A stretch of DNA of 28,183 nt from Opitutaceae bacterium (GCA_044344065.1 JBIJDP010000001.1:1-28183); one strand, 5' to 3'. Positions 389 through 28,183 are shown, counted from the stretch's first letter. The notes: generated by a model from the sequence alone, not told the origin. Translations and numbers: made by a program.

Positions 389-619
389 ATGACCAGCAAA
401 ATCCTTATCAACCGCAAGAAGCTACTCTCGATGATTCCGCTGTCGGAGCGCACCATCTTCAATATGGAGCAGCGAGGGGAGTTCCCGCGACGGATTGCGC
501 TCACTAGCCGGAACGTGGCCTGGGAGCTGAATGAGGTCGAGGCGTGGATTGAGGCCCGTAAGTCGTCTGGTATTCAGGCGACGCGCCCCGGTTTCACGCC
601 GATTGCCGTGGCCGCCTGA
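389..619 (+). CDS. alpA: AlpA family phage regulatory protein
   Basis: 76 aa; LSERTIFNMEQRGEFPRRIAL..RNVAWELNEVEAWI is the typical AlpA pattern. Confidence 0.88.
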   Translation: MTSKILINRKKLLSMIPLSERTIFNMEQRGEFPRRIALTSRNVAWELNEVEAWIEARKSSGIQATRPGFTPIAVAA

Positions 620-8448: not shown

Positions 8449-8525
8449 TGGCGGAGTGGACGGGACTCGAACCCGCGACCCCCGGCGTGACAGGCCGGTA
8501 TTCTAACCAACTGAACTACCACTCC
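8449..8525 (-). tRNA. tRNA-Asp (GTC)
   Basis: Reverse complement GGAGTGGTAGTTCAGTTGGTTAGAATACCGGCCTGTCACGCCGGGGGTCGCGGGTTCGAGTCCCGTCCACTCCGCCA: 77 nt, anticodon GTC, TTCG T-loop, CCA end. Confidence 0.97.
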
Positions 8526-11155: not shown

Positions 11156-11239
11156 ATGAACGCACCCGCCGCACCCGACCTGTCCAAGCACACGCCGATG
11201 ATGCGCCATTACCATTCGGCAAACTTATTTCACTTATAA
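11156..11239 (+). pseudogene. mutS: Stranded native 5' end of mutS, truncated by the island insertion
   Basis: ATG 7 nt after the queF stop encodes MNAPAAPDLSKHTPMMR (MutS N-terminal motif), then runs into AT-rich island sequence (HYHSANLFHL*). Confidence 0.9.
11201..11208 (+). repeat. attL core ATGCGCCA
   Basis: Identical to 27705-27712 and in frame with the native mutS ATG. Confidence 0.85.
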
Positions 11240-11397
11240 ATCAATAGCATACATCCAACAAAAGCCACTAGAAGCACACTGGGAAGCCATTAGGAATCCA
11301 TAAAAACCGGAAGATTTCGGCAAACTTACGAAAATGGCGGCATTTGACGGAGCTCCGTTCGGGGCGTTCTCCTCTCCTCCTACCTCTCTCGAACATC

Positions 11398-11697
11398 TCA
11401 AATCTGCCCCTTCCGAATCGCAGCCTCCAGGGTTGAACCCTGTCTATTTGCCGCCAACCAAGCTCGCAGATCACCCAGTCTATAGCGTACCGATTGGTTG
11501 AATCCCTTCATGCCGGAAATGGCAGCCTGATGGTAGTCAGGACCTATTCTGGGGTCGGTTGCGGAACGCATTCGCTCCATGGAGCGGACAGATACCCTGA
11601 GAAACAGGGCAGCCTCTTTTGTTGTCAGCATCACTTCATCTGATAGCTTTGCAATCCGGTCGGCCGCTTCGAGATTTTCCCAATCGAGTGAGGTCAT
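11398..11697 (-). CDS. Small HTH DNA-binding protein (excisionase/AlpA-like)
   Basis: MLTTKEAALFLRVSVRSMERMR...GPDY...VRYRLGDLRAWL resembles MerR-like/HTH_17 directionality factors; lies ~190 bp from attL. Confidence 0.75.
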   Translation of the reverse strand: MTSLDWENLEAADRIAKLSDEVMLTTKEAALFLRVSVRSMERMRSATDPRIGPDYHQAAISGMKGFNQSVRYRLGDLRAWLAANRQGSTLEAAIRKGQI

Positions 11698-11969
11698 TTA
11701 GGTTGGCAGGTATTTGAATGCATTGCGGTCCATCGCGACCTGTCGAAACGGGATAGGAAAATGTGCCCATCCACGCTCGCCTCAAGGTCTTTCTTACCCG
11801 ACCAACCATACCCATTAACATGACATATGTGTATATGAACTTGTTACCCGTGCTTTTCCCGAGTCGTTTCTGGGGACTCGCCTAGTGAAAATCAAAGCGG
11901 ATCGCTCCGGCATAGACGAGCTATTGATTTATCTTGCTGATCGATTAACGTACGCCCATTGATCCGGAA

Positions 11970-12305
11970 GTGGCAGACGTGGAACAGGTCGACAACAAAT
12001 ACCTTCCAAGCGATTGGCGTAGCCTTGAGATGCATCGTCTGATTGCCACAAAGTTGGAAGCAGATCCGTCTCTGGTCGAACGAGCCCGCTCCAACATTTC
12101 CCGTTGGAAAAATCAGCGTGGGGTGAGACCTACCTACTCTGAATGGGAGGAGATTCTCTCGTCAGGAATGGAGCGTATTTTTCACGTCTTGACCTGCGAG
12201 GACCAAGCAAGCGCCCGACTACGTTCTTCCACTCCCTTTACGGGCATTCTGTCTGATACGGAACGTGTTCAGCTATTCAATCGTTGGGCAGAAAAACACG
12301 GGTGA
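11970..12305 (+). CDS. Hypothetical protein, possibly antitoxin-like
   Basis: 111 aa from GTG; HRLIATKLEADP.LVERARSNISRW...EWEEIL...ARLRSSTPFTGIL resembles, from memory, a small family usually adjacent to nucleotidyltransferase-like genes. Unverified. Confidence 0.55.
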   Translation: MADVEQVDNKYLPSDWRSLEMHRLIATKLEADPSLVERARSNISRWKNQRGVRPTYSEWEEILSSGMERIFHVLTCEDQASARLRSSTPFTGILSDTERVQLFNRWAEKHG

Positions 12306-12356
12306 TCCGCCTCCAGCTATCAACAACATGTGTGTAAACAGCTTGTGGTCCGTAAC

Positions 12357-12392
12357 AAAAAAATGGGGATCGATTTATTCGATCCCCATTTT
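12357..12392 (-). terminator. Strong intrinsic terminator
   Basis: Perfect 14-bp stem AAAATGGGGATCGA-TTTAT-TCGATCCCCATTTT between convergent ORFs, with an extra T run on the minus strand. Confidence 0.8.
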
Positions 12393-12517
12393 AATGCGTG
12401 CAGCTTGGCTATTCCGCATCTCAAAAAGTTCCGACCTAGTGAAAGCTAGCCGTGTTCAGTCGGACCGTCCTGGCACCAGTTCTGGACTATTCATTTTCAT
12501 TCTCATTGGTGCCGAGT

Positions 12518-12904
12518 TTATCGAACGCTTAATCCGAGTATGTTACTCACGTCCGTCATTAAACCGTAAGCGGTGGTTTCGTTAAGGCCGCCCGCAAGTG
12601 TCGTGGCTTTGCCCCCATGCTCTGCGTCAAGGCGATATGATATCTCCGCCAATTTCTGAATGCGCTTCTTCTCGAGATGCTGTCCAAGAGCGGCGCCGGC
12701 GTTCTGAAGACCGGCAGACACTCCGCCACCATATTGCTGAACGCCGCCGAACACTTCAGTCCCGTCAACATGGTTGCGCAAGATCAGACGATGCAGTTCC
12801 GAAGTCGGGACTGCCTTGCCATTGATGTCGATTGTGGCCGGTGAAACCTTGATCGTGACAGGAGCGCGATACTGATTGGCCTGCTTGCCCTTCCAGATAA
12901 ACAA
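12518..12904 (-). pseudogene. Hypothetical protein, probably an N-terminally truncated or frameshifted remnant
   Basis: 128-aa ORF starting at TTG two codons after an in-frame stop; a hydrophobic stretch (MLYILTVV, ATG 12923) lies just upstream in a shifted frame. Confidence 0.45.
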
Positions 12905-13085
12905 CTGTTAATATATACAGCATTCGTCCGAAAAACTACTGTGTGGCCTTTCGTACCTTTCACTTTTTTGCGGCCTTCGTGGCCGTGCGCCAATCCCATG
13001 GAGGGACGCATCGCTCTTGAACTAACGCCAACACCGACAGGGGCGATCCGGTAAAATCGGTCGACAAGACTCCCAGAGCACTCAC

Positions 13086-13490
13086 ATGAGCGACATCAAA
13101 ACCCACGCGTCAATAACAGCGGAAGCCCTAAGGGAAAGACACCGCTCGGGGCTGGTAACACTCTACTCGCTGCCAGCCACCCAAGAGCGCATCGTCCTCC
13201 GCATTGCCGCACCCAACGGTGGAGAGCCAATCGAGGGGGAGAAATACATCGCCGAGTTCATCAACGCCGATACCGGTTCGGTAATCGAGGTGTTAGAGGA
13301 GGACGAGACTCAGCTGCTCGACATGGACTCAATACGCAACGTCATGGACGATCTTGGGGAGACATATCTTCTGTCGATAGCCGGCGACTGGGAAAACTAT
13401 GTTCAACAAAGCGGCCGTTGCTCTCCCGAAGACGGCGGTCCAAGCGTCTATGAAAGAGCCGACATAGAGCAGCTTGTCATCCGAGGCTGA
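13086..13490 (+). CDS. Acidic hypothetical protein
   Basis: 134-aa ATG ORF with protein-like composition and no competing longer ORF; no family recognised. Confidence 0.6.
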   Translation: MSDIKTHASITAEALRERHRSGLVTLYSLPATQERIVLRIAAPNGGEPIEGEKYIAEFINADTGSVIEVLEEDETQLLDMDSIRNVMDDLGETYLLSIAGDWENYVQQSGRCSPEDGGPSVYERADIEQLVIRG

Positions 13491-13576
13491 CATGTGTCAC
13501 TTGTCAAGAAGGACTCGTAGGATGCGGATCGGGACAAAACCACAAAGCACTGACATGAAGATGATTACGTGCAGTT

Positions 13577-13605
13577 TTGCCGAGAGAGTGGCCAAAGGAT
13601 AAAAT
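13577..13605 (+). promoter_or_regulatory. Candidate sigma70 promoter for the methyltransferase
   Basis: TTGCCG-N17-TAAAAT ending ~100 nt upstream of ATG 13706. Confidence 0.45.
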
Positions 13606-13705
13606 CACAAAGACGACGGGAACTTCCCGCTCATTCCGGTAGCATCCGAGGGCGCGGCAGACGCCCTTGAGTTTTGGCGCCTGGCAAACAACAAGAAAAG
13701 ACCAC

Positions 13706-15286
13706 ATGGCGACGCCCAAACCGATTCCAGTTATTGACCTTTTCGCAGGCCCGGGAGGCCTTGGCGAGGGCTTCTCCTCGCTCTCGGCGCCGGACGGATC
13801 GCCCCGCTTCAAGCTGCGCGTGTCCATCGAGAAGGATCCGCACGCCCACCGCACCCTTTCCCTGCGCGCCCTCTTCCGACAGTTTCCAAGGGGAAAGGCA
13901 CCGGACTGCTACTATGACCGCATTCGGGGAGACATCTCACAAGAGGCGCTGTTCGCCCACCCGGACGCGCGGGAGGCCGGCGAGGAGGCCCTGAACGAGG
14001 CAAGGCACGCCGAGCTCGGCTCGAAGGCCCATGACGAGATTGACGCCCGGATCGCCGCCGCCCTTGGCGACGAGAGCGACTGGGTCCTGATCGGCGGGCC
14101 GCCTTGCCAAGCCTATTCCCTCGCGGGACGCTCGCGACGTACCAAGGAGGCTCAGGAGACGTTCGAGAGCGACGAAAAGCATTTCCTCTACAAGGAGTAT
14201 CTGCGGATCATTCGCCGGTTCAAGCCCGCCGTCTTCGTCATGGAAAACGTAAAGGGGATGCTCTCGTCCACCCACGGCGGATCGGGAATCTTCGAAAGAA
14301 TCATGGCGGACCTGTCTTCGCCGGGTGAAGACCTGAGCTACGGCATCCGGTCGCTTGTGGTGCCCGGCGAAACAGGGGGACTCAACCCCAAGGATTTCAT
14401 CATCGAGGCCGAGCGTTTCGGTATCCCCCAGTGCCGCCACCGCGTCATCCTGTTCGGCGTGCGCTCGGACGTCGCCGCCCGCACACCGGAGCTTTCCCTC
14501 CACCCGGAACGCTTCACCATCCCCTTCTCTCCAGTGCCCGTCTCGGTGGCAGAGGCCCTTTCCGGCCTTCCGCGGCTTCGAAGCTGCCTGTCGCGCAGAT
14601 CCAAAACAGAGGACTCACACGAGGCTTGGCTCGACATCCTTCGGGGCGCGCCAGCGGCAATGGGGGAGTGGTCCGGGGCGGCAAGCCAAGCCTTCTCGAC
14701 AAATCTGGCAAACGCCATCGCGGCGGCCGGGAGCAGCGTATCGCCCGGCGGCGCCTTCATCGCCCAAGACGCGGCGATGAATGGGCCAGTGGGGCGGCTT
14801 CACGACTGGTTTTTCGACCCGCGGCTGGGCGGCGTCATCCAGCACGACACCCGCAGCCACATGCACTCGGATCTGCACCGCTACCTGTTCGCGTCCTGCT
14901 ACGCGAAAACCTTCGGTGTGTCGCCCAAGGTCACGCAGTTTCCGCGGGGGCTCCTACCCGCCCACGAGAACGCGACCGACGACCACCCGCCCTTCTCGGA
15001 CCGTTTCCGCGTCCAACTGGCGAGCTCCCCATCCTCCACCGTCGTGGCCCACATCGCCAAGGACGGGCACTACTTCATCCATCCCGACCCGTCGCAATGC
15101 CGCAGCCTGACGGTGCGCGAGGCGGCCCGCCTGCAAACCTTCCCCGACAACTATTTCTTCGAGGGCAACCGGACGCAGCAATACACCCAGGTCGGCAACG
15201 CCGTCCCGCCCCTGCTCGCCCGAAAAATCGCCCTTGTGGTACTTGACTTCATGCGACTGTCGAGCCGCCAGACAGCTCCCCGCTGA
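13706..15286 (+). CDS. DNA (cytosine-5) methyltransferase
   Basis: Motifs I DLFAGPGG, IV GGPPCQ, VI ENVKG, VIII QCRHRVIL, IX RSLTVREAARLQTFP and X QVGNAVPP in canonical order, with a long variable region. Confidence 0.95.
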   Translation: MATPKPIPVIDLFAGPGGLGEGFSSLSAPDGSPRFKLRVSIEKDPHAHRTLSLRALFRQFPRGKAPDCYYDRIRGDISQEALFAHPDAREAGEEALNEARHAELGSKAHDEIDARIAAALGDESDWVLIGGPPCQAYSLAGRSRRTKEAQETFESDEKHFLYKEYLRIIRRFKPAVFVMENVKGMLSSTHGGSGIFERIMADLSSPGEDLSYGIRSLVVPGETGGLNPKDFIIEAERFGIPQCRHRVILFGVRSDVAARTPELSLHPERFTIPFSPVPVSVAEALSGLPRLRSCLSRRSKTEDSHEAWLDILRGAPAAMGEWSGAASQAFSTNLANAIAAAGSSVSPGGAFIAQDAAMNGPVGRLHDWFFDPRLGGVIQHDTRSHMHSDLHRYLFASCYAKTFGVSPKVTQFPRGLLPAHENATDDHPPFSDRFRVQLASSPSSTVVAHIAKDGHYFIHPDPSQCRSLTVREAARLQTFPDNYFFEGNRTQQYTQVGNAVPPLLARKIALVVLDFMRLSSRQTAPR

Positions 15287-15710
15287 CGGCCCCTCCGTCG
15301 ATCCATTCGGCGAGCGCCATGGGAAGCGCGGCCAATGTGCCTTTGCCCCTTGTCGCGCACTCCCAGACCACGAGGGCGCGCCACCCGGAGCCCGTCAGGG
15401 ACTCGATGGCCTTTCGGTCCCTCGCGACGTTTCCCTCCAGCTTGGCCTTCCAGAATTCCGGCCGGGTCGCCGGAAGCTTCGCGAAGCGACAGCCCGCGTG
15501 CATGTGCCAGAAGCAGCCGTGGACGAAAACCGCCACGCGCCTCCCCGGGAGGACGATGTCGGGTGCCCCTGGCAAATCCGCCCGGTGAAGCCGGAACCTG
15601 AACCCGGCCGAGAACAGGGCCTTCCTGACCAGCATTTCCGGGCGCGTGTCCTTGCCCCTGATGCCCGACATCATCCGACTGCGCGTCTTCAAGTCGACGA
15701 CGTCGGTCAA
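15249..15710 (-). CDS. vsr: Very short patch repair endonuclease
   Basis: DVVDLKTRSRMMSGIRGKDTRPE, LPGAPDIV, FVHGCFWH and GWRALVVWEC; TTG start overlaps the AIPR stop (TTGA). Confidence 0.95.
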   Translation of the reverse strand: MTDVVDLKTRSRMMSGIRGKDTRPEMLVRKALFSAGFRFRLHRADLPGAPDIVLPGRRVAVFVHGCFWHMHAGCRFAKLPATRPEFWKAKLEGNVARDRKAIESLTGSGWRALVVWECATRGKGTLAALPMALAEWIDGGAVSGELSGGSTVA

Positions 15711-17497
15711 GCGGCGCTCCGGCGGGCCTCCGGAACGTCGAACAGCGGCGCCGAGAACGGCCGGGCGAACATGGCCTCCTTGCACTCGGGGCGCTTCGCC
15801 CATTCGGAAATCATCTTCCCGTTGGAGGTCTGGTGGAGGCGTTCGGCGACCTCACGGGCCCAAACCTCGACCTGCTGGACGAACTGCGGGGAGAGGCCCT
15901 GCCTGCCCCACACGCGTTCCAAATCGAAGGCGCTCCCGTATGTGCGGGAAACCACGGCGACCGTGTAGGCCGCGACGTTGGCGAGAAATGCGGAAACCAG
16001 CGGACGGGCGGTTTTGTGCACGGCCTTGAATATCAACGCCTTGGCGACGAGGTCCTTGAAATAGGCGACGTCGGTGGCGATGGGGCGGCCCTCGGCCTCG
16101 GCGGAGGCCAGCCCCGACATGAACCGGTCGAAGCACTTTTGGGTGCCGAGGCCAACCACGTCGGGCTGGGCGTCCCAGGCCAGGACGTATTTCGCGAGTT
16201 CGGTCTTGGTGATTTTCCGGGCATTGGGGACAGACTCCTTCAAGGCGCGCAACTTGGCGGGCGTCGTGCCCTCGCGGGAGAGAAGCGTGTTGTAGCTGCC
16301 CGCGGCGCGTTCGTAGAACCAGCGGCCGGAGCCGTCAGGGCAATAGACGGAGAGGGACAGGCGCTCGATTTCAACGTGGAAAGGCTTGTTGGCCGAGAGG
16401 TCGGACTGGCGGACCGCGTTCTGGGAGTTCGCGAAGCGCGAGATGTCGGATACCAAGGCCTCCTCCTTGGCGGGGTCCTCCTCCTTCATGACGATGATTT
16501 TGGCCGGGACCCGGACCCTGCTCAGATCGGTCTCGCAGAACTTCTTCTTGGCGAAGAATATCGAGGCGGTGGTCTGCCCGCCGTTCACAATCTGCATGCC
16601 GCGAAGCCAGACTATTCCAGGCGAGCCGTCCGCGGCCCTGTCGAGGCGCATCTCGTCGGCGACGAGGACGATGCCGTTGTTGTAGGCCATGAAACGCTCG
16701 GGGGCGTTCCGAAGGGTGTTCTGGATGCCGGCGTTGACGCCCTTGGCCTTCACGCTCAGGAACGAGCGGACGTTCGCCTCCAGGAGCCTCGGGCCGAACT
16801 TTTCATATACGAAACGGAGGGCCTCGCCGGGGATGGCGGTGAGCGCGTAGTCGTAGTCGCCCGTGTCGCCGGGGACGAAGACGCACGGCAGCGGTGAGCC
16901 GGATACCTCGTTGAAGTCGACGACCAGTTCGTCCCTCGGCTTGCCCTCGGAACGGTGGCGGAACAGCCGCTCGATGTCCATGACCTCGAGCTTGACGCTC
17001 TTTCCGCCGATTTCCCTCGTCTTGAAGCTCTTGGACTTGGCCACCCTGTCGGTGAGGACGAACACCCGGATCTGCTCCAGGTCGTTGTAGATGCTCTGGA
17101 TGTTTAGGGCCAGGAGGTGCGCGTCGTGCGACTGGTCGATTTCCTCGGCCATCTTCCCCGAGGCGCAGAGCGTGAGAAAACGCAGGCACTGCTCCACGGC
17201 GGTCGTCGTCTCCGAGTCGGGAATCGGGACAAGCCCCTCCGCCCCGTCGTAGAGGCTCACGAACAGATCAAGCTGATCCGTCTCCTCCGAGACGGCGTAC
17301 CCGGTAATGCGCAACTTCGCGCGGCCCCGTCCGACCTCCGCCTGGTAGTGGCACACGACGGGGTCGAAGGTCATGCCAACGTCCGCGAGGTGCTGCATGA
17401 CGACCTCGGCGAACACGAGTTCGGCGAAGGGAGAACCGTCGCTCATCTGGGCCCTGACTTCGGTCTGGGTTTCGAGAAGAAAATCCAAAAGGGTCAT
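15707..17497 (-). CDS. mzaE: AIPR family protein (MzaE)
   Basis: LLEANVRSFL, RFMAYNNGIVLVAD, QIVNGGQTTASI and ISRFANSQN; ATG 17497 overlaps the upstream TGA (TGATG). Confidence 0.88.
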   Translation of the reverse strand: MTLLDFLLETQTEVRAQMSDGSPFAELVFAEVVMQHLADVGMTFDPVVCHYQAEVGRGRAKLRITGYAVSEETDQLDLFVSLYDGAEGLVPIPDSETTTAVEQCLRFLTLCASGKMAEEIDQSHDAHLLALNIQSIYNDLEQIRVFVLTDRVAKSKSFKTREIGGKSVKLEVMDIERLFRHRSEGKPRDELVVDFNEVSGSPLPCVFVPGDTGDYDYALTAIPGEALRFVYEKFGPRLLEANVRSFLSVKAKGVNAGIQNTLRNAPERFMAYNNGIVLVADEMRLDRAADGSPGIVWLRGMQIVNGGQTTASIFFAKKKFCETDLSRVRVPAKIIVMKEEDPAKEEALVSDISRFANSQNAVRQSDLSANKPFHVEIERLSLSVYCPDGSGRWFYERAAGSYNTLLSREGTTPAKLRALKESVPNARKITKTELAKYVLAWDAQPDVVGLGTQKCFDRFMSGLASAEAEGRPIATDVAYFKDLVAKALIFKAVHKTARPLVSAFLANVAAYTVAVVSRTYGSAFDLERVWGRQGLSPQFVQQVEVWAREVAERLHQTSNGKMISEWAKRPECKEAMFARPFSAPLFDVPEARRSAA

Positions 17498-18504
17498 CAA
17501 ACAACTCCAAGTTTTTGCAGGGCCGCGTGCAAATCCGTCCGGTGGGCGGCGGCGCGGCCAAGGTCAATCTCATAGAGGGCCTTCGAGACCCCCTCGGGAA
17601 CGTTGCCGCGGACGAGCCTCGGGAACCCGTCCGTCACGGCGTGGACGTGGGACTCCTTGTCGAGGAAGCGGCGCGTGTATTTGTCGGCGTGGGATTCGGC
17701 GTAGCCCGCGGCGAAGGTTCTTTCGCGGAACGCCGAGACCGCCCCGGGGTCCGCCCCGAGCCTTTTCTCGATCTCGGCCACGCGTTCCGGCAGGGTCGTG
17801 CCGGAGTCGACCACCGCAAAGCGAATCCCCGCGAGGAAAAGGGGCGAGAGAAAGGAGTCGTCCAACTGTTCGAGGGAACCGATTTTGGCGGGGAAGCCCG
17901 CCGTGGAGACGGTGGCCTTCACCTCGATGGCCCCGTCGCCCAGCGCGAAGTCCTGAGGGGCGTCGTCCGGCCCCACCCACGATTCGAGGGCGATCTCCGC
18001 GTCGACACCCGCATCGAGGAGCGCCGAAAGGAACGAGATTTCACCGGCGAGCCCCACCTCTGCCTCGGGGCCGAGCGGTCTCGCGCCCTTGCCCATGAAC
18101 GCCTGCCACATGCGGACCCTTCGGAGCATGGCTTTGAGAACCCTCTCCTCCCCCTCGGGAACGGCGGCGTCCATCGCCCCGGCCACGTCGCCGACCATCT
18201 CGGCGAAAAGGTCAGAGCTTCCGGATTCGCGCCGCGACAGGGCGAGCCAGGTCTTTCCGTCGCCGTCCGGGTCGGCCCTCACGATCTCGAAGCCCCTCCC
18301 CTCGGGAAGATGCTCGGAGGGTCCGAGCCGGGCGGACGGGAACCGCGCCAGAAGGGCCTCCTCGTTTCCGGGGAACCGTCTGGCGGCCACCAGCCGGCAG
18401 CTTCCGGCCGGCGTCACGGGAATCCCCCGCCAGCCCCCCTCGCCCGGATCCCTTCCGGACAGCGCGGCCCAAGCGGCCACGAACTCGTCAATCGGCCTTG
18501 CCAT
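17497..18504 (-). CDS. mzaD: DUF4420 PD-(D/E)XK motif protein (MzaD)
   Basis: EVGLAGEISFL, WVGPDDAPQDF...AIEVKAT and IGSLEQLD. Confidence 0.85.
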   Translation of the reverse strand: MARPIDEFVAAWAALSGRDPGEGGWRGIPVTPAGSCRLVAARRFPGNEEALLARFPSARLGPSEHLPEGRGFEIVRADPDGDGKTWLALSRRESGSSDLFAEMVGDVAGAMDAAVPEGEERVLKAMLRRVRMWQAFMGKGARPLGPEAEVGLAGEISFLSALLDAGVDAEIALESWVGPDDAPQDFALGDGAIEVKATVSTAGFPAKIGSLEQLDDSFLSPLFLAGIRFAVVDSGTTLPERVAEIEKRLGADPGAVSAFRERTFAAGYAESHADKYTRRFLDKESHVHAVTDGFPRLVRGNVPEGVSKALYEIDLGRAAAHRTDLHAALQKLGVV

Positions 18505-18561
18505 GCCAACCTCCCAAACGCACTTCGGACGGACCCGCCCAAACCATGCAAACGTCGCCGT

Positions 18562-19614: not shown

Positions 19615-22478
19615 CAGTCCGCCCCTCCGTATTCACGCTCCCAGAGGAGATGGTCGACCTCGTATTTGACTGTCGTGTTCGACCTGCTGCCCGGGAAGCT
19701 GACGCCGAAGGCTGTGACCGGCGGCGAGCCGGCAGGCATCCCGGCAAACGCGGGGTCAAGCGGGTAGATCAGGAGAAGCCCGCGTTCGGGCGTCGCGGGG
19801 ACGCCCTGCGCCCCGAAGCCGCGAACGTTCCGGATGGCCGGGCCGCCCGGGATTTTCGGCGGTTCCGGCTTTTCCGGCTCCGACTGCCTGGCGGGGTCCT
19901 TGGTCCAGGCTGCAAGCGTGACGTCCATGGCCGCGGACCACGCCGCCTCGTCGAGGTCGATTGCCTCGTCACGCGGGGACAGGAGGCGGCCGATGGAATA
20001 ATACCCGCCGCCCTCCTTGGGCTTGCGTCGGATCATCTTTTCGACGAGATGGCGGCCGCAGAACCCGTGCGACTCCCCTTCCCCACCACCCATGAGGACG
20101 ACCGTCCAGGAGGTCAGTTCGCCGTTCGCCGCCATGGCCCTGACGAAGTCGCACAGGAGGGCGCTGTTGACCTTCCTGGCGGCCGGGTGGGTGAGGTAGG
20201 AGGAGAAGAAGTCGGCGATCAGATCGGCCGGCACGCCGTTCCAGAGGAAGCCCTTCCACTCCTGGGTGGAGGTTCCGCGCCTGCGGACGACGGAGCCGTC
20301 CTCCGCGGGAGCCCCCGCCGCGTCGAGCAGCCTCTCAGCCGCGGCCAGGTTTTTGGCGAGAATTTCGGGGTCTCGGTGGAAGGCCACGGTTTCAAGCACG
20401 TCCCCGCTGAACGAGAGTTGCAGGCTCTTCGCCGAGCGCATTTTCAGCGGCGAGGTCACCATGAGGATGGGATGGGACTGGACCTTCATACCGTAGTTTT
20501 CGGGCGTGGCTCCGACGGCGGCCATGGTGTCGAACTCCTGCCGCAACTCCTCGGCGGCGTCGGCGATGTGGCCGAACCACTCGACGAGGTCCCCGCTCGT
20601 GTAGAGCCTGCACAGGTCGATGTATCCCGGACGGTATCCGAACCACCTGCCCATCTGCATCAATGTGTCGTACATCTTCGAGGTGCGGACGAAGTAGCTG
20701 ACACAAAGCCCCTCCAAGGTGAGGCCCCGGGCGAGCTTGTCTCCGCCGATGGCAATCACCTTCAGGCCGGTCCCCTCGTTCTCCGAGTAGTCCAGGGCGT
20801 CCTTCGCGGTCCCGTTGATGGCCCGGACGTCGATGTCCCGGAGCGTCTCCGGCAGGACGGCCACGACGTCGTCCCAGGCCGGCAACGCGCAGTCGGACTC
20901 CGATCCGGGCAGCGCCTTGGCGAGGGTCTCCGAGGTTGGGGCGAAATCGGCCTCCCAGAGGCCGCGCCACTCGTCGAGAAGCTCGTCGCGCTCGAATCCG
21001 CGCTCGACCCTCTGCCTGAACCGCTTGACCAAGTCTTCCACCTGCCGGCGGACGTCCTCCTGGACGGAGTTGTATCGCGTGACGTGGACCAGCATGGAGG
21101 AGTGCTGACGCCCCTGCCCCCTCAGTGTCCTGGCCGCGCAGGCGAGGACGAAGGAGCCGACGGCTTCGCGCAGGGACGGAGGAACCGCGTCGTTCCCCTG
21201 GAACAGGGGGACGTGGTCGGTCTTGTGCTTGGCGGGCATCCAGCCCTCCTTACCGGTGGAGTCGACGTGGTCGTCCACCTCCCTGACCAAGGGCAGCCCG
21301 CCCGAACGCCCGTCCTGGGAGCGCAGGCCGAAGACCCTCGCGGGGCCCACGTAGTTGGACGGGGCGGCCAGGTTGACGATAAAGGATTGCGGGAACAGGT
21401 CGGGCCCCTCCTCGCTCGTCGCCCCGCGCCGGTGGATGAAGATGTTGGCGAAAGGGGTGGCCGTGTATCCGACGTAGGCCTTTTTGGCGAACGCGTGGAG
21501 GATTTTCCGGATGCGGCTGTTGATCGCTTTGGGCTGGTGCTCGTCGTCGGGAGTCCCGTCGGGGTTGAAAAGCTGCTCGCCGGTGTCGACCGAGGCGTGG
21601 TCCGCCTCGTCGTCGATGAGGAGGAGCGGCAGGTTGGTGACCAGCGGGCGGCCGTCGGCGTCCTTGGAGTCCGCGACATGGTTGCGAATCCATTTGAGCA
21701 GGCGCTCGAGGACGGTCTTGTTCTTCTTGACGACGAAGAGCCAGGGCCGCTGCTCCGGGGAGATGGCGTAGTGCTGGGCGACCTTGGTGTTGAAATCCCC
21801 GTTGTTGGAGCGGTTGGTCGCGCAATTGGGCCTGATTTCGGTGTCGCTGTCGAACTCGCCGACCCCGATGACCCTGACGGAGTCGCCCTTGGCGGAGGTC
21901 TCGTATCCGAGGAAGCCCTCTTCGAGCCGAATCTGGGTCTGCGAGCGCAGGTTGTTGTGCAGCCCGGCCAGGACGATGACGATTTTGTAGCCGGCGTCGG
22001 AGGCCTTGCAGACGAGCCCCGTGTAGTTGCCCGTCTTGCCCGACTGGACGTGGCCGACGACGAGACCCCGCCGGTCCCACCTTCCCTCGCGTTTGGGGTC
22101 CTCAAGGAGGCCGAGGATGTGGTTTGTCGACTCGTCGAGCGCGTCGACGGCCTTCACGGACATCTTCGTCTCGAGCATGGACTGGTAGCGCCGCCAATAT
22201 GGCCAGTCCTTCCTGCGGGCGGCGGTGAGCCACGCCTTGTGCCCCTCGTTGTCCGCGAGGGTCGAGTCCTTCCCGATCCAGAGGCTGAACCGCCGGATGA
22301 GTTCCGCGACGGCGGCCTGCTTGTCGATTTCCGCCCCGCGGGCGACGACCATGGCGGCCACCTCGACCTGCTCAAGGATGAGGGCCGGCGTGACCGCGCC
22401 GGTCTCCCGGTCGGCCTGAAGGAGGGTCTGGGCGACGCTTAGGACCCTCTGGAATGTCTTGCCTTCGTCTTCCGTCAC
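19614..22478 (-). CDS. mzaC: Z1 domain-containing SF2-like ATPase/endonuclease (MzaC)
   Basis: GHVQSGKT, IDDEADHAS, GYTATPFANIF and RGLTLEGL...YDTLMQMGRWFGYR; GTG start overlaps the mzaB stop. Confidence 0.9.
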   Translation of the reverse strand: MTEDEGKTFQRVLSVAQTLLQADRETGAVTPALILEQVEVAAMVVARGAEIDKQAAVAELIRRFSLWIGKDSTLADNEGHKAWLTAARRKDWPYWRRYQSMLETKMSVKAVDALDESTNHILGLLEDPKREGRWDRRGLVVGHVQSGKTGNYTGLVCKASDAGYKIVIVLAGLHNNLRSQTQIRLEEGFLGYETSAKGDSVRVIGVGEFDSDTEIRPNCATNRSNNGDFNTKVAQHYAISPEQRPWLFVVKKNKTVLERLLKWIRNHVADSKDADGRPLVTNLPLLLIDDEADHASVDTGEQLFNPDGTPDDEHQPKAINSRIRKILHAFAKKAYVGYTATPFANIFIHRRGATSEEGPDLFPQSFIVNLAAPSNYVGPARVFGLRSQDGRSGGLPLVREVDDHVDSTGKEGWMPAKHKTDHVPLFQGNDAVPPSLREAVGSFVLACAARTLRGQGRQHSSMLVHVTRYNSVQEDVRRQVEDLVKRFRQRVERGFERDELLDEWRGLWEADFAPTSETLAKALPGSESDCALPAWDDVVAVLPETLRDIDVRAINGTAKDALDYSENEGTGLKVIAIGGDKLARGLTLEGLCVSYFVRTSKMYDTLMQMGRWFGYRPGYIDLCRLYTSGDLVEWFGHIADAAEELRQEFDTMAAVGATPENYGMKVQSHPILMVTSPLKMRSAKSLQLSFSGDVLETVAFHRDPEILAKNLAAAERLLDAAGAPAEDGSVVRRRGTSTQEWKGFLWNGVPADLIADFFSSYLTHPAARKVNSALLCDFVRAMAANGELTSWTVVLMGGGEGESHGFCGRHLVEKMIRRKPKEGGGYYSIGRLLSPRDEAIDLDEAAWSAAMDVTLAAWTKDPARQSEPEKPEPPKIPGGPAIRNVRGFGAQGVPATPERGLLLIYPLDPAFAGMPAGSPPVTAFGVSFPGSRSNTTVKYEVDHLLWEREYGGAD

Positions 22479-24001
22479 TTGCTGCTCCCCTCAGTGGCCC
22501 CGTCCGCTCCCGGCAGGGAGGCGACGAGCGCCGGATAGTTTTGGAAAGGGTCCGTCGCCGACAGAGCGCGGACGGCTGCCTCGGGGCTCATGCCCCGCCT
22601 GCCCGTCATGTCGCGGTAGAGCGTGAGCAGCACCCGCTGCACGCCCTCGGGGGCCTCGGGAGGCTCGCCGGTGAACCCGGTCTTCGGCGTGTCCTTGTTC
22701 TCGGCGGTGTCCAGCCAGATTCGCTGGACGGGCACAGTCTCCTCGACGACGCGCAGCATGGCCCTCACCAGATCGGAGCGTAGCCCCGCGGCGTCGATGA
22801 CTGCCGCGACGGCGGGATGCGACTCGTCGATCCTGTAGCGGACCCCGTCCCTCAGGCGCTCGACCCGCCACGCCTGCTCGACGCGCGCTCCGCCGGGACC
22901 CGGGGCGGGCGCCCCGCGGAAGGCGAAAACCCTCCGGGCCCTTTCCCTCGTGTCCTCGGCGAGTTTGGTCAGCCACGCCTTGACGAGCACGGGCGGCCTG
23001 GCGGTTGACTTCTTGACGTCGATTTTCCACTCGGCGTCGGCGGTGTTGGGAATGTCCAGGCGGATGCGGGCGAGGCGGTGCGACTCCTCGCGGTTCCAGG
23101 CCCTGCCCTGGCCCAGGCCGAGCCACCCGCCAGCGAGAAGCAGGCGGCGGTTACGGTAGACGTAGAAGCCCTGCTGCGACGTCCACCCCTCGGGGCCGCC
23201 GGCCCGCTTGAACTCGTCGTCGGAGAGGCGGTCCTTGTGGGGGAGGACGTGACACTGGACCTCGATTGCACCGGACGGGGTGGCCGTCCTGGCGGCGGGC
23301 GAGTGCCAAGGCTTGGCCGGGTGCCCTGTCATGAACGGGTCCCATGGCCTGACCGGCTTTCCGTTCAGGAAAAGCCTGAAGTCCGGAGCGTTACCCTCAA
23401 GGAGGCGGTGGAAGACCATGCCGAGGCGCGCCTCGACGTCGTCGGAGAGATCGCCGAAGTGGCCGACGTCGTAGCCGGGCGTCACGATCCGGTCGAGCCT
23501 CTCCCAAAGCACGAGCGTCCCCGAGCGCAAGAGGGAAAGGGGTTCGAGAAACGCCTCGGAGCCGTCAGCCGGCCCCTCGTGCATGTTCCAGCCGCCGTCG
23601 GACGATGCCAGCATGTCGAGGTCCCAGCGCAGGCATGCGGTCGCCCCGCCTTCGCGCTTTGAGGCCACGGTCAGCCGTCGGCACTGCGAAAAGGAGGCGG
23701 TCTTGAGCCCCATGCCGAAGCGTCCAAGGTCGTCGGCCGCCCTCTCGTCCAGCGGGCTCTTCGCGCCGAGTGTCATCGCGGTTTCGAGTTCGGCGTCGGT
23801 CATCCCCCTTCCGTCGTCCAGAACGGAGATCCTGCTGGCCGTCCCCTCCCAGTCGAACGAGACGCGGACCTCGGACGCTCCTGCGGAGACGCCGTTGTCT
23901 ATCACGTCCGCCAGGGCGGAGGCTGTCGAGTAGCCGAGGCCACGAAGTGCCTCCAACATCGCTCCCGCTCTGGGCGGGGCGTAGCGAGTCTTGCCCGTCA
24001 T
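22475..24001 (-). CDS. mzaB: MORC/MutL-like GHKL ATPase (MzaB)
   Basis: ALADVIDN, DDGRGM, DLGRFGMGLKTASFS, GTLV and IDVKKSTARPP. Confidence 0.9.
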   Translation of the reverse strand: MTGKTRYAPPRAGAMLEALRGLGYSTASALADVIDNGVSAGASEVRVSFDWEGTASRISVLDDGRGMTDAELETAMTLGAKSPLDERAADDLGRFGMGLKTASFSQCRRLTVASKREGGATACLRWDLDMLASSDGGWNMHEGPADGSEAFLEPLSLLRSGTLVLWERLDRIVTPGYDVGHFGDLSDDVEARLGMVFHRLLEGNAPDFRLFLNGKPVRPWDPFMTGHPAKPWHSPAARTATPSGAIEVQCHVLPHKDRLSDDEFKRAGGPEGWTSQQGFYVYRNRRLLLAGGWLGLGQGRAWNREESHRLARIRLDIPNTADAEWKIDVKKSTARPPVLVKAWLTKLAEDTRERARRVFAFRGAPAPGPGGARVEQAWRVERLRDGVRYRIDESHPAVAAVIDAAGLRSDLVRAMLRVVEETVPVQRIWLDTAENKDTPKTGFTGEPPEAPEGVQRVLLTLYRDMTGRRGMSPEAAVRALSATDPFQNYPALVASLPGADGATEGSSK

Positions 24002-24044
24002 TCTGCGTACATTCCTTGTGTGCGGCGTGCGGAACCCGTGCCCC

Positions 24045-26366
24045 TCATGCCGCGTCCTCCGTATCGGGTTCGTCCGAGGAGTCGGCAGGCGAGGTCTTCC
24101 CCCACTTCTTTTCGCGCCCCTCGCCCATGTAGACGGCGAGGACGTCCTTGCGGGTCGCGTGGGAGAGCCTGCGCAGGGCCTTGGCCTCGATTTGGCGAAT
24201 CCGCTCCCGAGTCACCTCGAACCGCTGCCCGACCTCCTCCAAGGTCATGGGGTCCTCGTCTCCGAGCCCGAAGCGCAGGGTGACGACCTCCCCCTCACGC
24301 TCCTTCAACTCTCCGACCATCCCAAGAAGCGTCGAGCGCAGAGAAGCCGCCTCGGCATGCAGGTAGGGGTCTTCGGAGGCGGGGCCGGGAAGACCCTCGC
24401 CGAACGGCAGCCCCGTCGCCTCGTCCGGCTCGTCTAGCGAGGAGGCGCCTTCGGAGAGTTCGATAATCCTTCGGGCCTTCCACACGGGAAGCCCCATCCG
24501 TCGCGAGGTTTCCTCGATGGTCTCGGGGCGTCCCGCGCGGGCCTCGAACTCGTCCCGCTCGCGCTCGGTCCGGCGGACGGTCTCGTGCATATGGACCGGA
24601 ATCCGAATGGTCCTCGACTTGTCGGCGATGGCCCTTGAAATCTGCTGGCGAATCCACCATGTGGCGTATGTGGAGAAGCGGAAGCCCTTGCGCCAGTCGT
24701 AGCGCTCGACCGCCTTCATCAAGCCGATGTTCCCCTCTTGGACGAGGTCCTCCAAGGGTTCGCCGGAACGCATGTATTTCTTCGCGAGGGAGAAGGCGAG
24801 CCGGAGGTTGGAAAGGATCATCCTCTCCCGCGCAGCGGCCTGCCGCGTCACGGCTGCGGCGAAGTCGGCACCTGCCCCTTGGCCGCCGGCCGTCTTGGCG
24901 AGCTCGAGAAGGAATCCCCGCGACAGGTTGGCGGCGGCCAGCGCTTGGCGGAGCCGCCCTTTTTTCGCGACGGATGCCTCGACCTCGCCCACGGCCTCAA
25001 CGAACGCCGAGGCGTCCCCGTCGAGTTCGACCGCGTCCTCCTCCGGTTCGCTATCCGGAACCGAGGGTGCGTGGTCGCCGTCGTCAGACGGCTCGGGTCC
25101 CGAGCTGAACGACTCGACGTCCGCCTCGCCGCTGGCCACCTTCCGGCCGGCGTCGATGACGGCGGCTACGCCGGCAGGCCATTCGGCCAGTGCGTCGAGG
25201 GCCTCCTCGCCCGCCTCTTCCATGGCCCTGCCGAGGGAGAGTTCCTCGTCGGCCGTGAGCAGCGCCCCCTTGAACCCGCGAAGATAGAGCCGAAGAGGAT
25301 CGTTTCTGCCGGACGCGAGTTCCTCGGCGTGCTCCATTGCCTCGGAGAGGACGGGCTCCTCCGCGAAGGTTTCGTCAGGCTGGTGAGGCGCGCCGCCGCT
25401 TTCGTCCCGCTCGTCAATCGAGGCGCTGAGGTCGCCCAGCACAAAGGAAAGAAGCCTTTCCGCCTCCGCGTTCCGCGAGCCGTCCGCCTCGCGGCAGACC
25501 TCGACGAGGAGCGATTCCGGCACGGAGCCCTCGCGTAGCGCTCGAAGGAGAAGGCTGCGGACGCCGGGTCCCTCGCCGTCCTCGCGGGCCAAGGGAAGAG
25601 CGCGTTCGGGCAGGAACGCCTCGATGTATCCCCAGTCCTCGTCGGTGTCGACGATCTTGTGCCGGCCTATGGCCTCGTGCACCGCGCGAACCTCGTCTGC
25701 GACGGCGTCGTCGCCTTCCGGAGCGACGCTCTCCGTCTCGGGTTCCCATCCGCCGAAACAATGCCCGTCGTCCGGCTCGTCGAATCCGGGCAACTCCGCC
25801 GCGCCCGTCCGTCCGCACTCCGGAGCGAAGCGCGCCGGCATGAGCGCGGTTTCGGGTCGTTCTTCAATCGTGTCCGCGGGAATGGGCTCAGGCGGGGAAG
25901 AGATTTCACCCGTCCGCAAGCGGAATTCGACACTCTCGCCAGTCGCCTCGGGAACGGGGTCGCCGCTCGTCCCTGTGTCGCCTTGGGAGTCCACGGGGGG
26001 GGCGGGTGAACGGCATTCAGGTTCGGCGGGCACGGTTTCCGGCTCGGCCTGCCGGATGCCTGCGGAAATCGAAGCCAGGGCGGCGCGAATGAGGTCCGAG
26101 CACTCGGCGGAACCAGAACGCTCGGCATGGCCGAGGGCGTCGAGGCCCGAGGGGTCGGTGAGGGAAGGATCGGCACCTGCGGACAGCAGCAGGGCCACGA
26201 CTCCTTTCTTCTTTCGACCTGCGGCGAGCATCAGCGGGGTCGCCCCGCCGCCGTCGCGGGCGTCAAGGTTGTCTCCCCTGCGGATGTGGAGGCGGACGGC
26301 GGTCTCGACCCCGGCGAGGACAGCCATGCGCATGAGGGGGTTCATCGGCTTCACCGGTCTATCCAC
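24045..26366 (-). CDS. mzaA: Ankyrin-repeat + RpoD-like sigma70 fusion (MzaA); true start may be ATG 26345
   Basis: N-terminal ankyrin (DARDGGGATPLMLAA...LLSAGADP); sigma region 1.2 DPLRLYL, region 2 NLRL...DLVQEGNIGLMKAVERYDWRKGFRFSTYATWWIRQ, region 4 TLEEVGQRFEVTRERIRQIEAKAL. Confidence 0.9.
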   Translation of the reverse strand: MDRPVKPMNPLMRMAVLAGVETAVRLHIRRGDNLDARDGGGATPLMLAAGRKKKGVVALLLSAGADPSLTDPSGLDALGHAERSGSAECSDLIRAALASISAGIRQAEPETVPAEPECRSPAPPVDSQGDTGTSGDPVPEATGESVEFRLRTGEISSPPEPIPADTIEERPETALMPARFAPECGRTGAAELPGFDEPDDGHCFGGWEPETESVAPEGDDAVADEVRAVHEAIGRHKIVDTDEDWGYIEAFLPERALPLAREDGEGPGVRSLLLRALREGSVPESLLVEVCREADGSRNAEAERLLSFVLGDLSASIDERDESGGAPHQPDETFAEEPVLSEAMEHAEELASGRNDPLRLYLRGFKGALLTADEELSLGRAMEEAGEEALDALAEWPAGVAAVIDAGRKVASGEADVESFSSGPEPSDDGDHAPSVPDSEPEEDAVELDGDASAFVEAVGEVEASVAKKGRLRQALAAANLSRGFLLELAKTAGGQGAGADFAAAVTRQAAARERMILSNLRLAFSLAKKYMRSGEPLEDLVQEGNIGLMKAVERYDWRKGFRFSTYATWWIRQQISRAIADKSRTIRIPVHMHETVRRTERERDEFEARAGRPETIEETSRRMGLPVWKARRIIELSEGASSLDEPDEATGLPFGEGLPGPASEDPYLHAEAASLRSTLLGMVGELKEREGEVVTLRFGLGDEDPMTLEEVGQRFEVTRERIRQIEAKALRRLSHATRKDVLAVYMGEGREKKWGKTSPADSSDEPDTEDAA

Positions 26367-27270
26367 GTGCGCCGCCTTCCCCTGCGGGAGGAACGTATCC
26401 GGGGGCGATTGCCGCGCTTTCCACGCCGTAGAGCGAAAGCGGGTCCCGAAGCCAGAGGGCGTGTTCCGGACCCCGCAGGCGGTGGTCGGGGGAGCAGTCG
26501 ACGTTCCAGCGCCTCATGACGTAGCCCGCCAAGGCCGCGCGAGCCCGAACCCTGAGAACGCCGTCCGCCATCGGATAGTCGAGTGCAGCCAGTTCCGGTC
26601 GTTCCGAGTCAGGGTGGGCGACCAGTTCGAGGTCCACCACCCGGGTCCACTGGGCGTCGTCTCCTGGGCCCTCGCCTTGGCCCGGTACGTCCCCGGGAAC
26701 GACCTCCGCCGACAGCACCCGCGTGAGGACGAAATCACGGAAGGAGGCGCTTTTCCTGTCGAAGGCCCGGACGTGCCATCGGAGCCCGTTGTCGGCTAGG
26801 GCGAAAGGGACTATTTCTCGCAGCGACTCCCCGCCGGACGCGGAGAAATAGGCGACGCGGAGAACGGCCCCGGACGCGACGGCCCTGGTCACCCGGGCGA
26901 GCGTGTCCGTCGCGGGACGGTTGATGGGCGAGGGAAACTCGCAGGGAACCATGGGCCCCTCCCCGCCGCCGATTCCGTCTCCGAAGCCCAAGGCGAGCGA
27001 CGAGAGGACGCGGTCGATGGGGTGTTCGAACAAGGGAGAGAACGACGCCCCTATCCGATAGGTCTTGGTTCGGCCGTCGAAGGTGATGTTGCCCGGGACC
27101 GCCTCGCGATACAGGGCGAGGTCGCGGGTGGCGCCGGCCGGAGCGACACCGAAACGCGAGCAGATGTCTGCCCTAGAAACCTCGCCGAGGAACCAAAGAC
27201 GAAAGTCTATGTGCGCAAGCCTCTCCCTCTGGGCCTGTCCGAGTTTTGCGGGAAACCCGATTGCCGCCAC
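26359..27270 (-). CDS. WYL-domain transcriptional regulator (BrxR/CapW-like)
   Basis: N-terminal wHTH QRERLAHIDFRLWFLGEVSRADICSRFGVAPAGATRDLALY; WYL region REIVPFALADNGLRWHVRAFDRK...FRDFVLTR; AAGGA RBS before GTG. Confidence 0.9.
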   Translation of the reverse strand: MAAIGFPAKLGQAQRERLAHIDFRLWFLGEVSRADICSRFGVAPAGATRDLALYREAVPGNITFDGRTKTYRIGASFSPLFEHPIDRVLSSLALGFGDGIGGGEGPMVPCEFPSPINRPATDTLARVTRAVASGAVLRVAYFSASGGESLREIVPFALADNGLRWHVRAFDRKSASFRDFVLTRVLSAEVVPGDVPGQGEGPGDDAQWTRVVDLELVAHPDSERPELAALDYPMADGVLRVRARAALAGYVMRRWNVDCSPDHRLRGPEHALWLRDPLSLYGVESAAIAPGYVPPAGEGGARG

Positions 27271-27288
27271 CGCGGTCCTTTTGCTCTT

Positions 27289-27340
27289 GTGTCAATGACA
27301 AACGATTCTACAGAGGGGCCCGGGTTTTGTACATGACACC
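27289..27340 (-). promoter_or_regulatory. Candidate promoter and operator of the WYL-mza operon
   Basis: Minus-strand TGTACA(27333-27328)-N17-TAGAAT(27310-27305); palindrome TGTCA-A-TGACA at 27290-27300 near the predicted +1; GTGTCA/TGACAC copies bracket the promoter. Confidence 0.55.
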
Positions 27341-27554
27341 TGCTCATTTTGACGACATCCGCCTGAAAGTCGCGTCAGGTGACACGGTAAACGGAAAAAA
27401 GGAGGACTTGGGCAATGCATGCATCGAAGGGATAATCACACCCTTTCGAGCAACACATTCTCACGAGGATTTTCCTGATTTCAGGAATCTTTTGGGAAGC
27501 CACGAGAACTAAAAACCGTAGAAAAATGTACTTCAAGCCAGGTGCGAAAATCTT

Positions 27555-27567
27555 TAACATATTGATA
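27555..27567 (-). promoter_or_regulatory. IHF-binding site in the right att arm
   Basis: Minus-strand TATCAATATGTTA is an exact WATCAANNNNTTR match, ~140 bp from attR. Confidence 0.55.
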
Positions 27568-27662
27568 AATAACGATTTTATTTTTCAAAAAGTCCCCCGC
27601 CAATAAAAACAGTGCCCTCAGCAGACAACTTAACGCATCGCAAAAATTACCAATAAAATCAA

Positions 27663-28183
27663 ATGGTTAAAGAAGAAAAAGAGCACACCAAACATACTCC
27701 TTTCATGCGCCAGTACATGGCGCTCAAGGCTAACCATCCGAACACGCTGCTCTTCTACCGGATGGGCGATTTCTACGAGCTGTTCCACGACGATGCCGAA
27801 AAGGCGGCGCGGCTGCTCGATATCACGCTGACCACGCGCGGCCAGTCGGCCGGCGTGCCGATCAGGATGTGCGGTATTCCCTTCCATTCGCTGGAGCCCT
27901 ACCTCGCCCGTCTGGTCAAGCTCGGCGAATCGGCGGTGATCTGCGAGCAGATCGGAGATCCGGCGACCAGCAAGGGGCCGGTCGAGCGGGCTGTGGCGCG
28001 CATCGTGACGCCGGGCACGCTGACCGACGCGGCGCTGATCGACGACAAGCGCGATGTCTGGCTGCTCGCGGTGACCACGAACAGAAACACTGCCGGCATC
28101 GCCCGGCTGAACCTGGCCAGTGGCGAATTCGTGCTGCTCGAAGTGCCGGCCGAGCAAATTCCGGCGACGCTGGAGCGCATCCG
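27663..28183 (+). CDS. mutS: DNA mismatch repair protein MutS (5' part, runs off the window) with an island-supplied N-terminus
   Basis: My translation from ATG 27663: [60 protein letters not shown]...GIPFHS...VICEQIGDP...[14 protein letters not shown]. Missing from the ORF track because no stop is reached. Confidence 0.97.
27705..27712 (+). repeat. attR core ATGCGCCA
   Basis: Identical to 11201-11208; marks the switch from AT-rich island sequence to GC-rich mutS coding sequence. Confidence 0.85.

Follow-up and report, generated by a model that had tools for sequence, protein, structure and literature searches.

An integrase-less, att-flanked defence island inserted in the start of mutS that supplies the gene with a replacement start

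How can an island of defence genes sit within the first codons of mutS and leave that gene in frame, and what could move such an island if it encodes no recombinase of its own? Both questions are raised by a stretch of 28,183 nucleotides (GCA_044344065.1, JBIJDP010000001.1:1-28183), here called the window, which is the whole of one contig in a 70%-complete metagenome-assembled genome (MAG; bin G000) registered as an Opitutaceae bacterium. An earlier note, drawn up from this sequence alone, described a defence island that interrupts mutS and rebuilds its N-terminus, and took the class of such elements to be already known. It is: Chu et al. 2017 (PMC5296598) described elements that enter a mutS motif and supply a new start. 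The results below firmly support both the insertion, with the N-terminus of MutS rebuilt, and the assignment of the island to that functional class. Where the island departs from the published elements is in having no integrase, a point on which the earlier note was silent.

An island splits mutS and supplies a new start

The 8-mer ATGCGCCA occurs twice in the window, 16,504 bp apart. Between its copies lies an island of 16,496 bp (11209-27704), accompanied by one duplicated 8-bp core, with boundaries after 11208 and before 27705. These fall inside the Met-Arg-Gln that follows HTPM, that is, in mutS codons 15-17 (the HTPMM-R/Q motif). The features at the two junctions are as follows.

11156-11239, plus strand: native mutS start left as an orphan, MNAPAAPDLSKHTPMMR, followed by 10 residues encoded in the island and a stop
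11201-11208, plus strand: attL copy of the 8-bp core, with the host/island boundary after 11208
27663-27704, plus strand: island-encoded replacement start of 14 codons
27705-27712, plus strand: attR copy of the 8-bp core
27663-28183, plus strand: mutS, first 173 codons, to the end of the contig

At the left junction, the queF stop codon (11146-11148) is followed 7 nt on by the ATG of the orphan mutS at 11156. The orphan frame reads MNAPAAPDLSKHTPMMR and then HYHSANLFHL up to a stop at 11237-11239, so that 27 codons are left behind queF, and the orphan peptide equals the first 17 residues of an intact MutS (P0123) from the uninterrupted locus L133 described below.

At the right junction, an in-frame TAA at 27654 is followed by the ATG at 27663 as the first possible start. 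This ATG shares the reading frame of mutS, whose MutS_I domain (Pfam, 2e-40) is matched from residue 12 and whose DNA is 90-92% identical to mutS of relatives. The second copy of the 8-mer is preceded in frame by an island-encoded mimic of the native start, in which His-Thr-Pro is written CAT ACT CCT and not CAC ACG CCG. The repeat and the recoded mimic, both noticed earlier, can be read directly in the sequence. Mimic and native start match at 21 of 29 bases (27688-27716 versus 11184-11212), and this stretch is where the two BLAST segments on L133 overlap (29 bp). The rebuilt MutS thereby carries HTPFM in place of HTPMM, with Phe for the first Met. Four different host MutS sequences carry the same 14-codon peptide at their start, and full-length MutS open reading frames (ORFs) of 859-863 amino acids stand behind the island in four other hosts. 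The G+C content drops to about 50-56% at the two ends of the interval only; in the cargo it is 62-72%, similar to the host flank.

The best explanation of this arrangement is that the island keeps a full-length MutS in frame by supplying both the upstream region and a 14-codon mimic of the start. We infer that transcription of mutS begins in the right arm and its translation at 27663.

Empty sites occur in relatives and in the same lake water

In close relatives, found through QueF and MutS protein searches only, queF is directly followed by an intact mutS with no island between them (L133, and also L122-L127 and L129, whose QueF is 93-94% identical to that of the window). Their gene order is that of the window: guaA, guaB, ..., smpB, response regulator, Hpt, thiamine pyrophosphate (TPP) enzyme, queF. 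On the 483-kb contig of L133, queF is followed after 7 nt by MutS P0123, which has exactly the predicted N-terminus. The flanks of this locus align to the window up to 11212 (92.6%) and from 27688 on (90.5%), which delimits the island as 11209-27704 plus one core copy. Because such empty sites exist, the insertion is real, although an 8-mer repeat alone could be due to chance.

The earlier note had predicted that the empty site would be in frame, and a comparison with relatives lacking the island had been set beforehand as its refuting test. The relatives show queF followed by contiguous MNAPAAPDLSKHTPMMRQY, L133 carries queF together with a contiguous intact mutS, and the join of 11200 to 27705 is present in lake metagenome contigs; the prediction thus stands. 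The earlier note also supposed that imprecise excision would create a mutator; all empty sites seen were in frame.

The junction region of the island is present in full in 19 lake-water runs. The precise 11200-to-27705 join, with the 8 letters common to both sides, was recovered in three of the four Logan runs examined (X4, X16 and X1), where the joining contigs had depths of 11.7, 4.2 and 3.6 and the island had depths of 13.6, 8.4 and 6.2. In all four runs unitigs break exactly at 11208/11209 and at 27704/27705, those at attR ending at 27734 (= 27704 + 30). The data show a presence/absence polymorphism among co-occurring close relatives.

A small backbone recurs at the same mutS nucleotide in several hosts

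Comparison of the island with other records showed that its only conserved backbone consists of about 1.1 kb on the left (att arm, a gene for an HTH_17 protein and one gene without a family match) and about 0.3 kb on the right (arm and mutS mimic).

11209-11397, plus strand: left att arm, non-coding, in which TTCGGCAAACTTA (13 nt) is directly repeated at 11215 and 11316 and the motif TGGGAAGCCA...AAAAACCG lies at 11280-11309; 86-89% identity in five further contexts
11398-11697, minus strand: HTH_17/excisionase-like protein, 99 amino acids (Pfam HTH_17, 4e-07; PHROG 66 excisionase/regulator, 1e-04)
11970-12305, plus strand: all-helical protein of about 105-111 amino acids without a family match, 83-91% identical in L155-L158
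27400-27662, plus strand: right att arm, AT-rich and non-coding, with candidate mutS promoters and, at 27493-27518, the arm motif; conservation of about 90% in G041, L135, L141 and L142

Over the left 1.08 kb, the window shows 86-89% identity to six other records; among L155, L156 and L158 the left backbone reaches 96% identity, while hosts and cargo differ. The backbone was found at the same mutS nucleotide in five or more host backgrounds and with four or more sets of cargo, and wherever the junction lies on the contig it starts at the same nucleotide after ATG-NNN-CA. The host N-termini that precede the attL junctions are MNAPAAPDLSK, MSTAAPDLAK, MTQTTADLSK, MSKTADSPK and MVKDAVPDLAK, of which the last four match the local host clade. 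The left neighbours of the insertion also vary (queF, NOV_C or smpB). Within the family the cargo comprises Dcm-Vsr-Mza; a Qat-like set with TatD, a KAP NTPase and TIR; DUF4007 with a giant FtsK-domain protein; and a 2015-residue AAA_16 (STAND-like) protein. An 88% identical relative of the HTH_17 protein precedes four different cargo sets.

On the right, about 300 bp of arm together with the mimic are about 90% conserved and are fused to four host mutS sequences, one of which continues RQYLALKS. The change from HTPMM to HTPFM, which had been thought peculiar to the window copy, is therefore a constant feature of the right arm, present in four hosts. In L142 the island arm and ATG are joined to host-like HTPMM codons, and its start is thus recombinant. 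Scanning metagenome contigs for exact matches to a right-arm pattern added only one further host. Two scans of viral contigs gave, respectively, no match and 13 chance matches without arm homology.

A second complete copy of the island, of about 20.7 kb, was found on contig C18 of genome G041, with attL after MSTAAPDLAKHTPMMRQ. On another contig of this genome (C19), queF lies apart from mutS.

The product of the 11970-12305 gene gave no Pfam, NCBIfam or PHROG match; Atlas searches returned unnamed clusters only, the AlphaFold model had a pLDDT (predicted local distance difference test) score of 67, and Foldseek found unnamed helical proteins only. A 109-residue ORF of L131, considered as a possible homologue, is not homologous to it.

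The arms bear signs of site-specific recombination

Each arm contains, once and in the same orientation, the motif TGGGAAGCCA followed after 8-20 nt by AAAAACCG. In the 3.3-Mb G041 genome this motif occurs in only two places, one per arm, and the reversed control occurs nowhere (0 matches). The two core copies of G041 differ, with CGC at attL and ATC at attR, which would fit heteroduplex segregation across the overlap region of a recombinase. The core mimic (ACATACTCC...ATG), with its AT-rich codons CAT ACT CC, resembles that of two integrase-bearing elements, L066 and L092. Taken together, the single motif per arm, the differing G041 cores and the likeness of the mimic to L066 and L092 make the arms look functional. 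The right arm in addition holds four promoter-like sites, as judged by consensus matches, against 0.6 expected.

The 8-bp repeat was also considered as the target-site duplication of a transposase. This origin was set aside, as the site is invariant across hosts and the G041 core copies differ. A search for repeats along the entire island gave no further, internal copy resembling an att site among the repeat families listed.

No recombinase is encoded in the island

Scans with Pfam, NCBIfam and PHROG found no integrase, resolvase, transposase or relaxase domain in any ORF of the island. A six-frame search with PF00589 was likewise negative for the island and for G041 contig C18, its only match in the window being an unrelated integrase beside guaA (594-1802; see below). 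The integrases that lie beside mutS in L066 and L092, used as tblastn queries, gave no match in the island (the 12B01 integrase was not among the queries). Neither of the two complete copies, in the window and in G041, thus has an integrase or other recombinase. At the same mutS site in other Betaproteobacteria, the integrase of integrase-bearing elements (L066, L092) lies directly beside mutS.

The exact boundaries of the island, its empty site, its membership in a family that spans several hosts and its lack of an integrase are shown by these comparisons.

Defence cargo of the window copy

Between the backbone parts, the window copy carries the following genes.

12518-13490, minus and plus strands: two window-specific small ORFs (128 amino acids, minus; 134 amino acids, plus) without a family match, called as genes in the conspecific records L149-L153
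13667-15286, plus strand: C5 cytosine DNA methyltransferase, Dcm-like (Pfam DNA_methylase, 6e-45; PADLOC methyltransferase models)
15249-15803, minus strand: Vsr very-short-patch mismatch endonuclease (Pfam Vsr, 5e-30), on this strand and not as the plus-strand ORF
15707-17500, minus strand: MzaE, AIPR (PADLOC MzaE, 1e-213; Pfam AIPR)
17497-18504, minus strand: MzaD, DUF4420 (PADLOC MzaD, 1e-61; Pfam DUF4420)
18562-19614, minus strand: macro-domain protein of 350 amino acids, between MzaC and MzaD (Pfam Macro, 2e-15; NCBIfam ADP-ribose hydrolase models below their cut-offs)
19614-22478, minus strand: MzaC, Z1 (PADLOC MzaC, E=0)
22475-24001, minus strand: MzaB, MutL-like GHKL ATPase (PADLOC MzaB, 2e-188)
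24045-26366, minus strand: MzaA, ankyrin and sigma-70 (PADLOC MzaA, 3e-67; NCBIfam MzaA at 508 bits, below the 800-bit cut-off)
26359-27270, minus strand: WYL-domain (BrxR-like) regulator (Pfam WYL, 2.5e-11); its G041 counterpart has BrxR winged-helix (WHD), WYL and C-terminal (CTD) domains

All five Mza components, identified by PADLOC profiles and Pfam domains, lie in one operon in the order A-B-C-D-E. The cargo names given in the earlier note (Mza, C5 methylase, Vsr) are borne out by these matches. As a feature that would set this copy apart the cargo does not hold up, because Dcm-Vsr-Mza is also present at this site in G041, L157, L159-161 and L131. In the macro-domain protein, the domain covers approximately residues 18-185, and the C-terminal half received no assignment; the gene is not present in the Mza operons of L131 and L157. 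The cargo Vsr and the MutL-like ATPase touch the same repair pathway as mutS, but their pairing with it is probably coincidental, since other islands at the same place carry different cargo.

Other arrangements at the start of mutS

Several further arrangements were seen at this position. In L131 (9054-19054) and L132, Dcm-Vsr-Mza stands right behind queF, and a HigB/HTH_3 pair replaces the orphan mutS start and the left backbone. MutS clusters whose annotated start is MMRQYMALK (e.g., P0133) may belong to this form. In some relatives (L144 and L145, 8999-10100), a gene with a NOV_C domain lies between the TPP enzyme and mutS. The native-looking MutS of these two loci starts MIKEEKDLSKHTPMM behind unrelated upstream DNA, and the mimic of the island resembles that start; it may have been captured from a host with a start of this type.

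A 2.3-kb integrase-less islet lies inside mutS in a further betaproteobacterial MAG (L058, 1033-3337), with an orphan start that ends ...ATHTPMM. On reading their sequences, its two genes (245 and 318 amino acids) are putatively AbiEi/AbiEii-like. In L146 (4959-9987), another close relative, a Fic gene and a gene for a 1287-residue methyltransferase-PLD-helicase-DUF3427 protein precede a mutS that starts MNKKK...GHTPMM; no integrase was found within 10 kb, and six MutS clusters share this start. L146 probably represents a different island family at the same site.

Host assignment and flanking genes

The contig appears to be misbinned and not to belong to bin G000. Its MutS is 39-46% and its GuaA 54-57% identical to those of the genomes placed in the same genus as the bin, and a second guaA is present in the bin, on contig C449. 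A DNA search for the junction region among the relatives of the bin gave weak matches only. None of the 80 GTDB loci found with the MutS fragment had queF within 10 kb; the closest was 78% identical and had serB upstream. QueF and MutS are 90-95% identical to those of Dechloromonas/Azonexus-like Rhodocyclaceae, which places the contig there, and a lake-water member of this group is the best explanation of the host.

10294-11148, plus strand: queF (NADPH-dependent 7-cyano-7-deazaguanine reductase; Pfam QueF_N and QueF), the last host gene before mutS, 93-94% identical to QueF of Rhodocyclaceae
8449-8525, minus strand: tRNA-Asp (GTC), found by ARAGORN between the Hpt and TPP-enzyme genes
594-1802, minus strand: P4-type tyrosine integrase of 402 amino acids beside the 3' end of guaA (area 594-2110)

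The guaA-side integrase belongs to a second island, which extends off the left end of the contig, and the spacer between it and guaA holds repeated ATGGTATC-like motifs. The guaA site is also polymorphic, as it holds an integrase and AlpA in L122-L124 and a 178-residue ORF instead in the conspecific L149 and L150 and in the relative L126.

What moves the island?

We consider it reasonably probable that the island is an att-flanked satellite mobilised in trans by the recombinase of a helper, a reading favoured because the same integrase-less backbone stands at an identical position behind several host-specific starts. In this mechanism, site-specific recombination would insert the island into mutS codons 15-17. 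A tyrosine-type recombinase from a helper element would integrate and excise it in trans, as in integrase-less cis-mobilisable elements, the HTH_17 protein would act as directionality factor, and interchangeable defence cargo would be carried between the conserved arms.

Several observations weigh against mobilisation in trans or its consequences for mutS. No helper integrase was found in G041 or in the window's own bin; because the contig is misbinned, the search in that bin says nothing about the true host. The integrases of G041 are generic, at 24-31% identity to mutS-adjacent integrases. Those of L066 and L092 are unlikely helpers, since the arm motifs of these two elements (CCTACAC repeats) differ from those of the island. 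The contigs of four Logan runs contained no circular attP junction, with the reservation that contigs drop rare forms, and the empty-site contig of run X1 differs from the window at five nearby mutS positions, so that it comes from a co-occurring sister lineage and is no proof of excision. Backbone DNA is rare among species representatives: two of 401 sampled genomes of the family gave a match, G041 and one with only a weak 50-nt match, and a search of 401 genomes of the order left these two as the yield of both samples. Finally, the promoter and the start at 27663 are read from consensus matches and ORF logic only.

The same absences could be read as the mark of a fossil, that is, of a mutS element that lost its integrase and was fixed as a remnant, with later spread by descent or by homologous recombination in the flanks and with turnover of cargo between the arms. 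The integrase is missing from the island and from G041 C18, no attP junction was seen in contigs, and the island is stably present across many samples and years. In L131 and L132 the same Mza cargo stands behind queF with the orphan start and left backbone gone and HigBA in their place, and the recombinant start of L142 shows that homologous exchange does happen here; a small non-excising element was also among those of Chu et al. 2017 (PMC5296598). Against this stand the integrase-less backbone at an identical nucleotide behind five host-specific orphan starts with different left neighbours, arms that share 96% identity between hosts with strongly divergent mutS starts, and clean empty sites in the closest relatives of the window host. 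In addition, the left-side homology amounts to only about 20 conserved bases, too short to give the same junction each time. We regard a fossil as unlikely, though it deserves to be kept in mind. That the island moves itself, with the HTH_17 protein and the protein of about 105 amino acids recruiting a host recombinase (e.g., of Xer type) or forming a new minimal recombination system, has only a small probability. These two genes alone are conserved across all members, beside attL, and the second protein has no detectable family or named fold. Both products are of about 100 amino acids with no catalytic domain detected, however, the HTH_17 family is known for DNA-binding excisionases and regulators, and the structure model is of low confidence (pLDDT 67).

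A chimeric metagenome join at the junctions would suit a contig that is itself misbinned, with MutS and GuaA about 40-57% identical to those of the bin's other genomes and a second guaA in the bin. Misbinning leaves the continuity of the contig unaffected, however, and at least 22 contigs assembled independently of one another (JGI, ENA, Logan) show these junctions and this gene order again, with an identical HTH_17 protein. Unitigs cross both junctions without mismatch (e.g., from 11179 on and up to 27734), and both arms recur in G041 and other records. We therefore give an assembly or binning artefact practically no credence. Mobilisation in trans could also be put in a much stronger form, in which the mutS start in Rhodocyclaceae is a docking site for a recombinase-free 1.4-kb backbone that shuttles defence systems between species by means of a helper or host recombinase, each move rewriting the mutS promoter and first 14 codons. 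If this were true, the acquisition of defence would be mechanically coupled to the control of mutS; we think it improbable in this form.

Relation to known systems

The nearest relatives of the island are the elements of Chu et al. 2017 (PMC5296598), which lie in the HTPMMQQ motif of mutS in Vibrio splendidus 12B01, E. coli 536, P. putida F1 and B. multivorans CF2, and for which, in the three cases outside Vibrio, an in-frame empty site is predicted. With these the island shares the mutS motif, an orphan host start upstream, an element-supplied start and upstream region, short direct repeats at its ends, an in-frame empty site and occurrence in Betaproteobacteria. It differs in that an integrase next to mutS defines those elements, whereas the island and its backbone family have none; its cargo is purely defensive, its mimic has Phe for the first Met, and it is known from sequence alone. 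A limited literature search on integrase-less or defence islands in mutS found only this one study (PMC5296598). The published mutS elements were found by searching for integrases, so that integrase-less members could not have been seen before. We accordingly file this integrase-less, att-flanked defence island as a variant of the known class of mutS insertions, as the class-defining integrase is absent.

What the variant adds is that the same mutS site also holds minimal att-flanked cassettes which exchange entire defence systems and occur in several host species, and their spread raises a testable question, namely who moves them. Co-existing lake lineages with and without the island moreover offer a natural series of MutS N-termini (HTPMM, HTPFM, different promoters), suited to a test of how insertion affects the mutation rate; should there be no effect, the site is one more defence hotspot.

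Elements flanked by att sites but without a recombination module, which can use the recombinase of a related element that recognises the same attB, are familiar as cis-mobilisable elements (CIMEs) related to the Streptococcus ICESt elements and as pseudo-SCC elements related to staphylococcal SCC (staphylococcal cassette chromosome). Like them, the island has attL and attR and no recombination or transfer module, with its mobility in trans being proposed here. Unlike them, it lies in a target within a coding start that needs rebuilding and keeps an excisionase-like gene, and no helper element or tandem accretion was seen.

As to the cargo, Mza is called a validated anti-phage system in PMC9523054. 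The predicted operon here resembles it (PADLOC; PMC9523054) in having a complete MzaABCDE set next to a C5 methylase and Vsr, and differs from related Mza operons in the macro-domain gene between MzaC and MzaD and in an MzaA below the NCBIfam equivalog cut-off. In its overall plan the family recalls variable defence hotspots such as those of P2/P4 (PMC9122126): both have a slot, bordered by a short conserved backbone, that is filled by one or another of several unrelated defence systems. The backbone of the mutS family is no phage or satellite genome, however, but comprises only about 1.4 kb, made up of att arms and two small genes.

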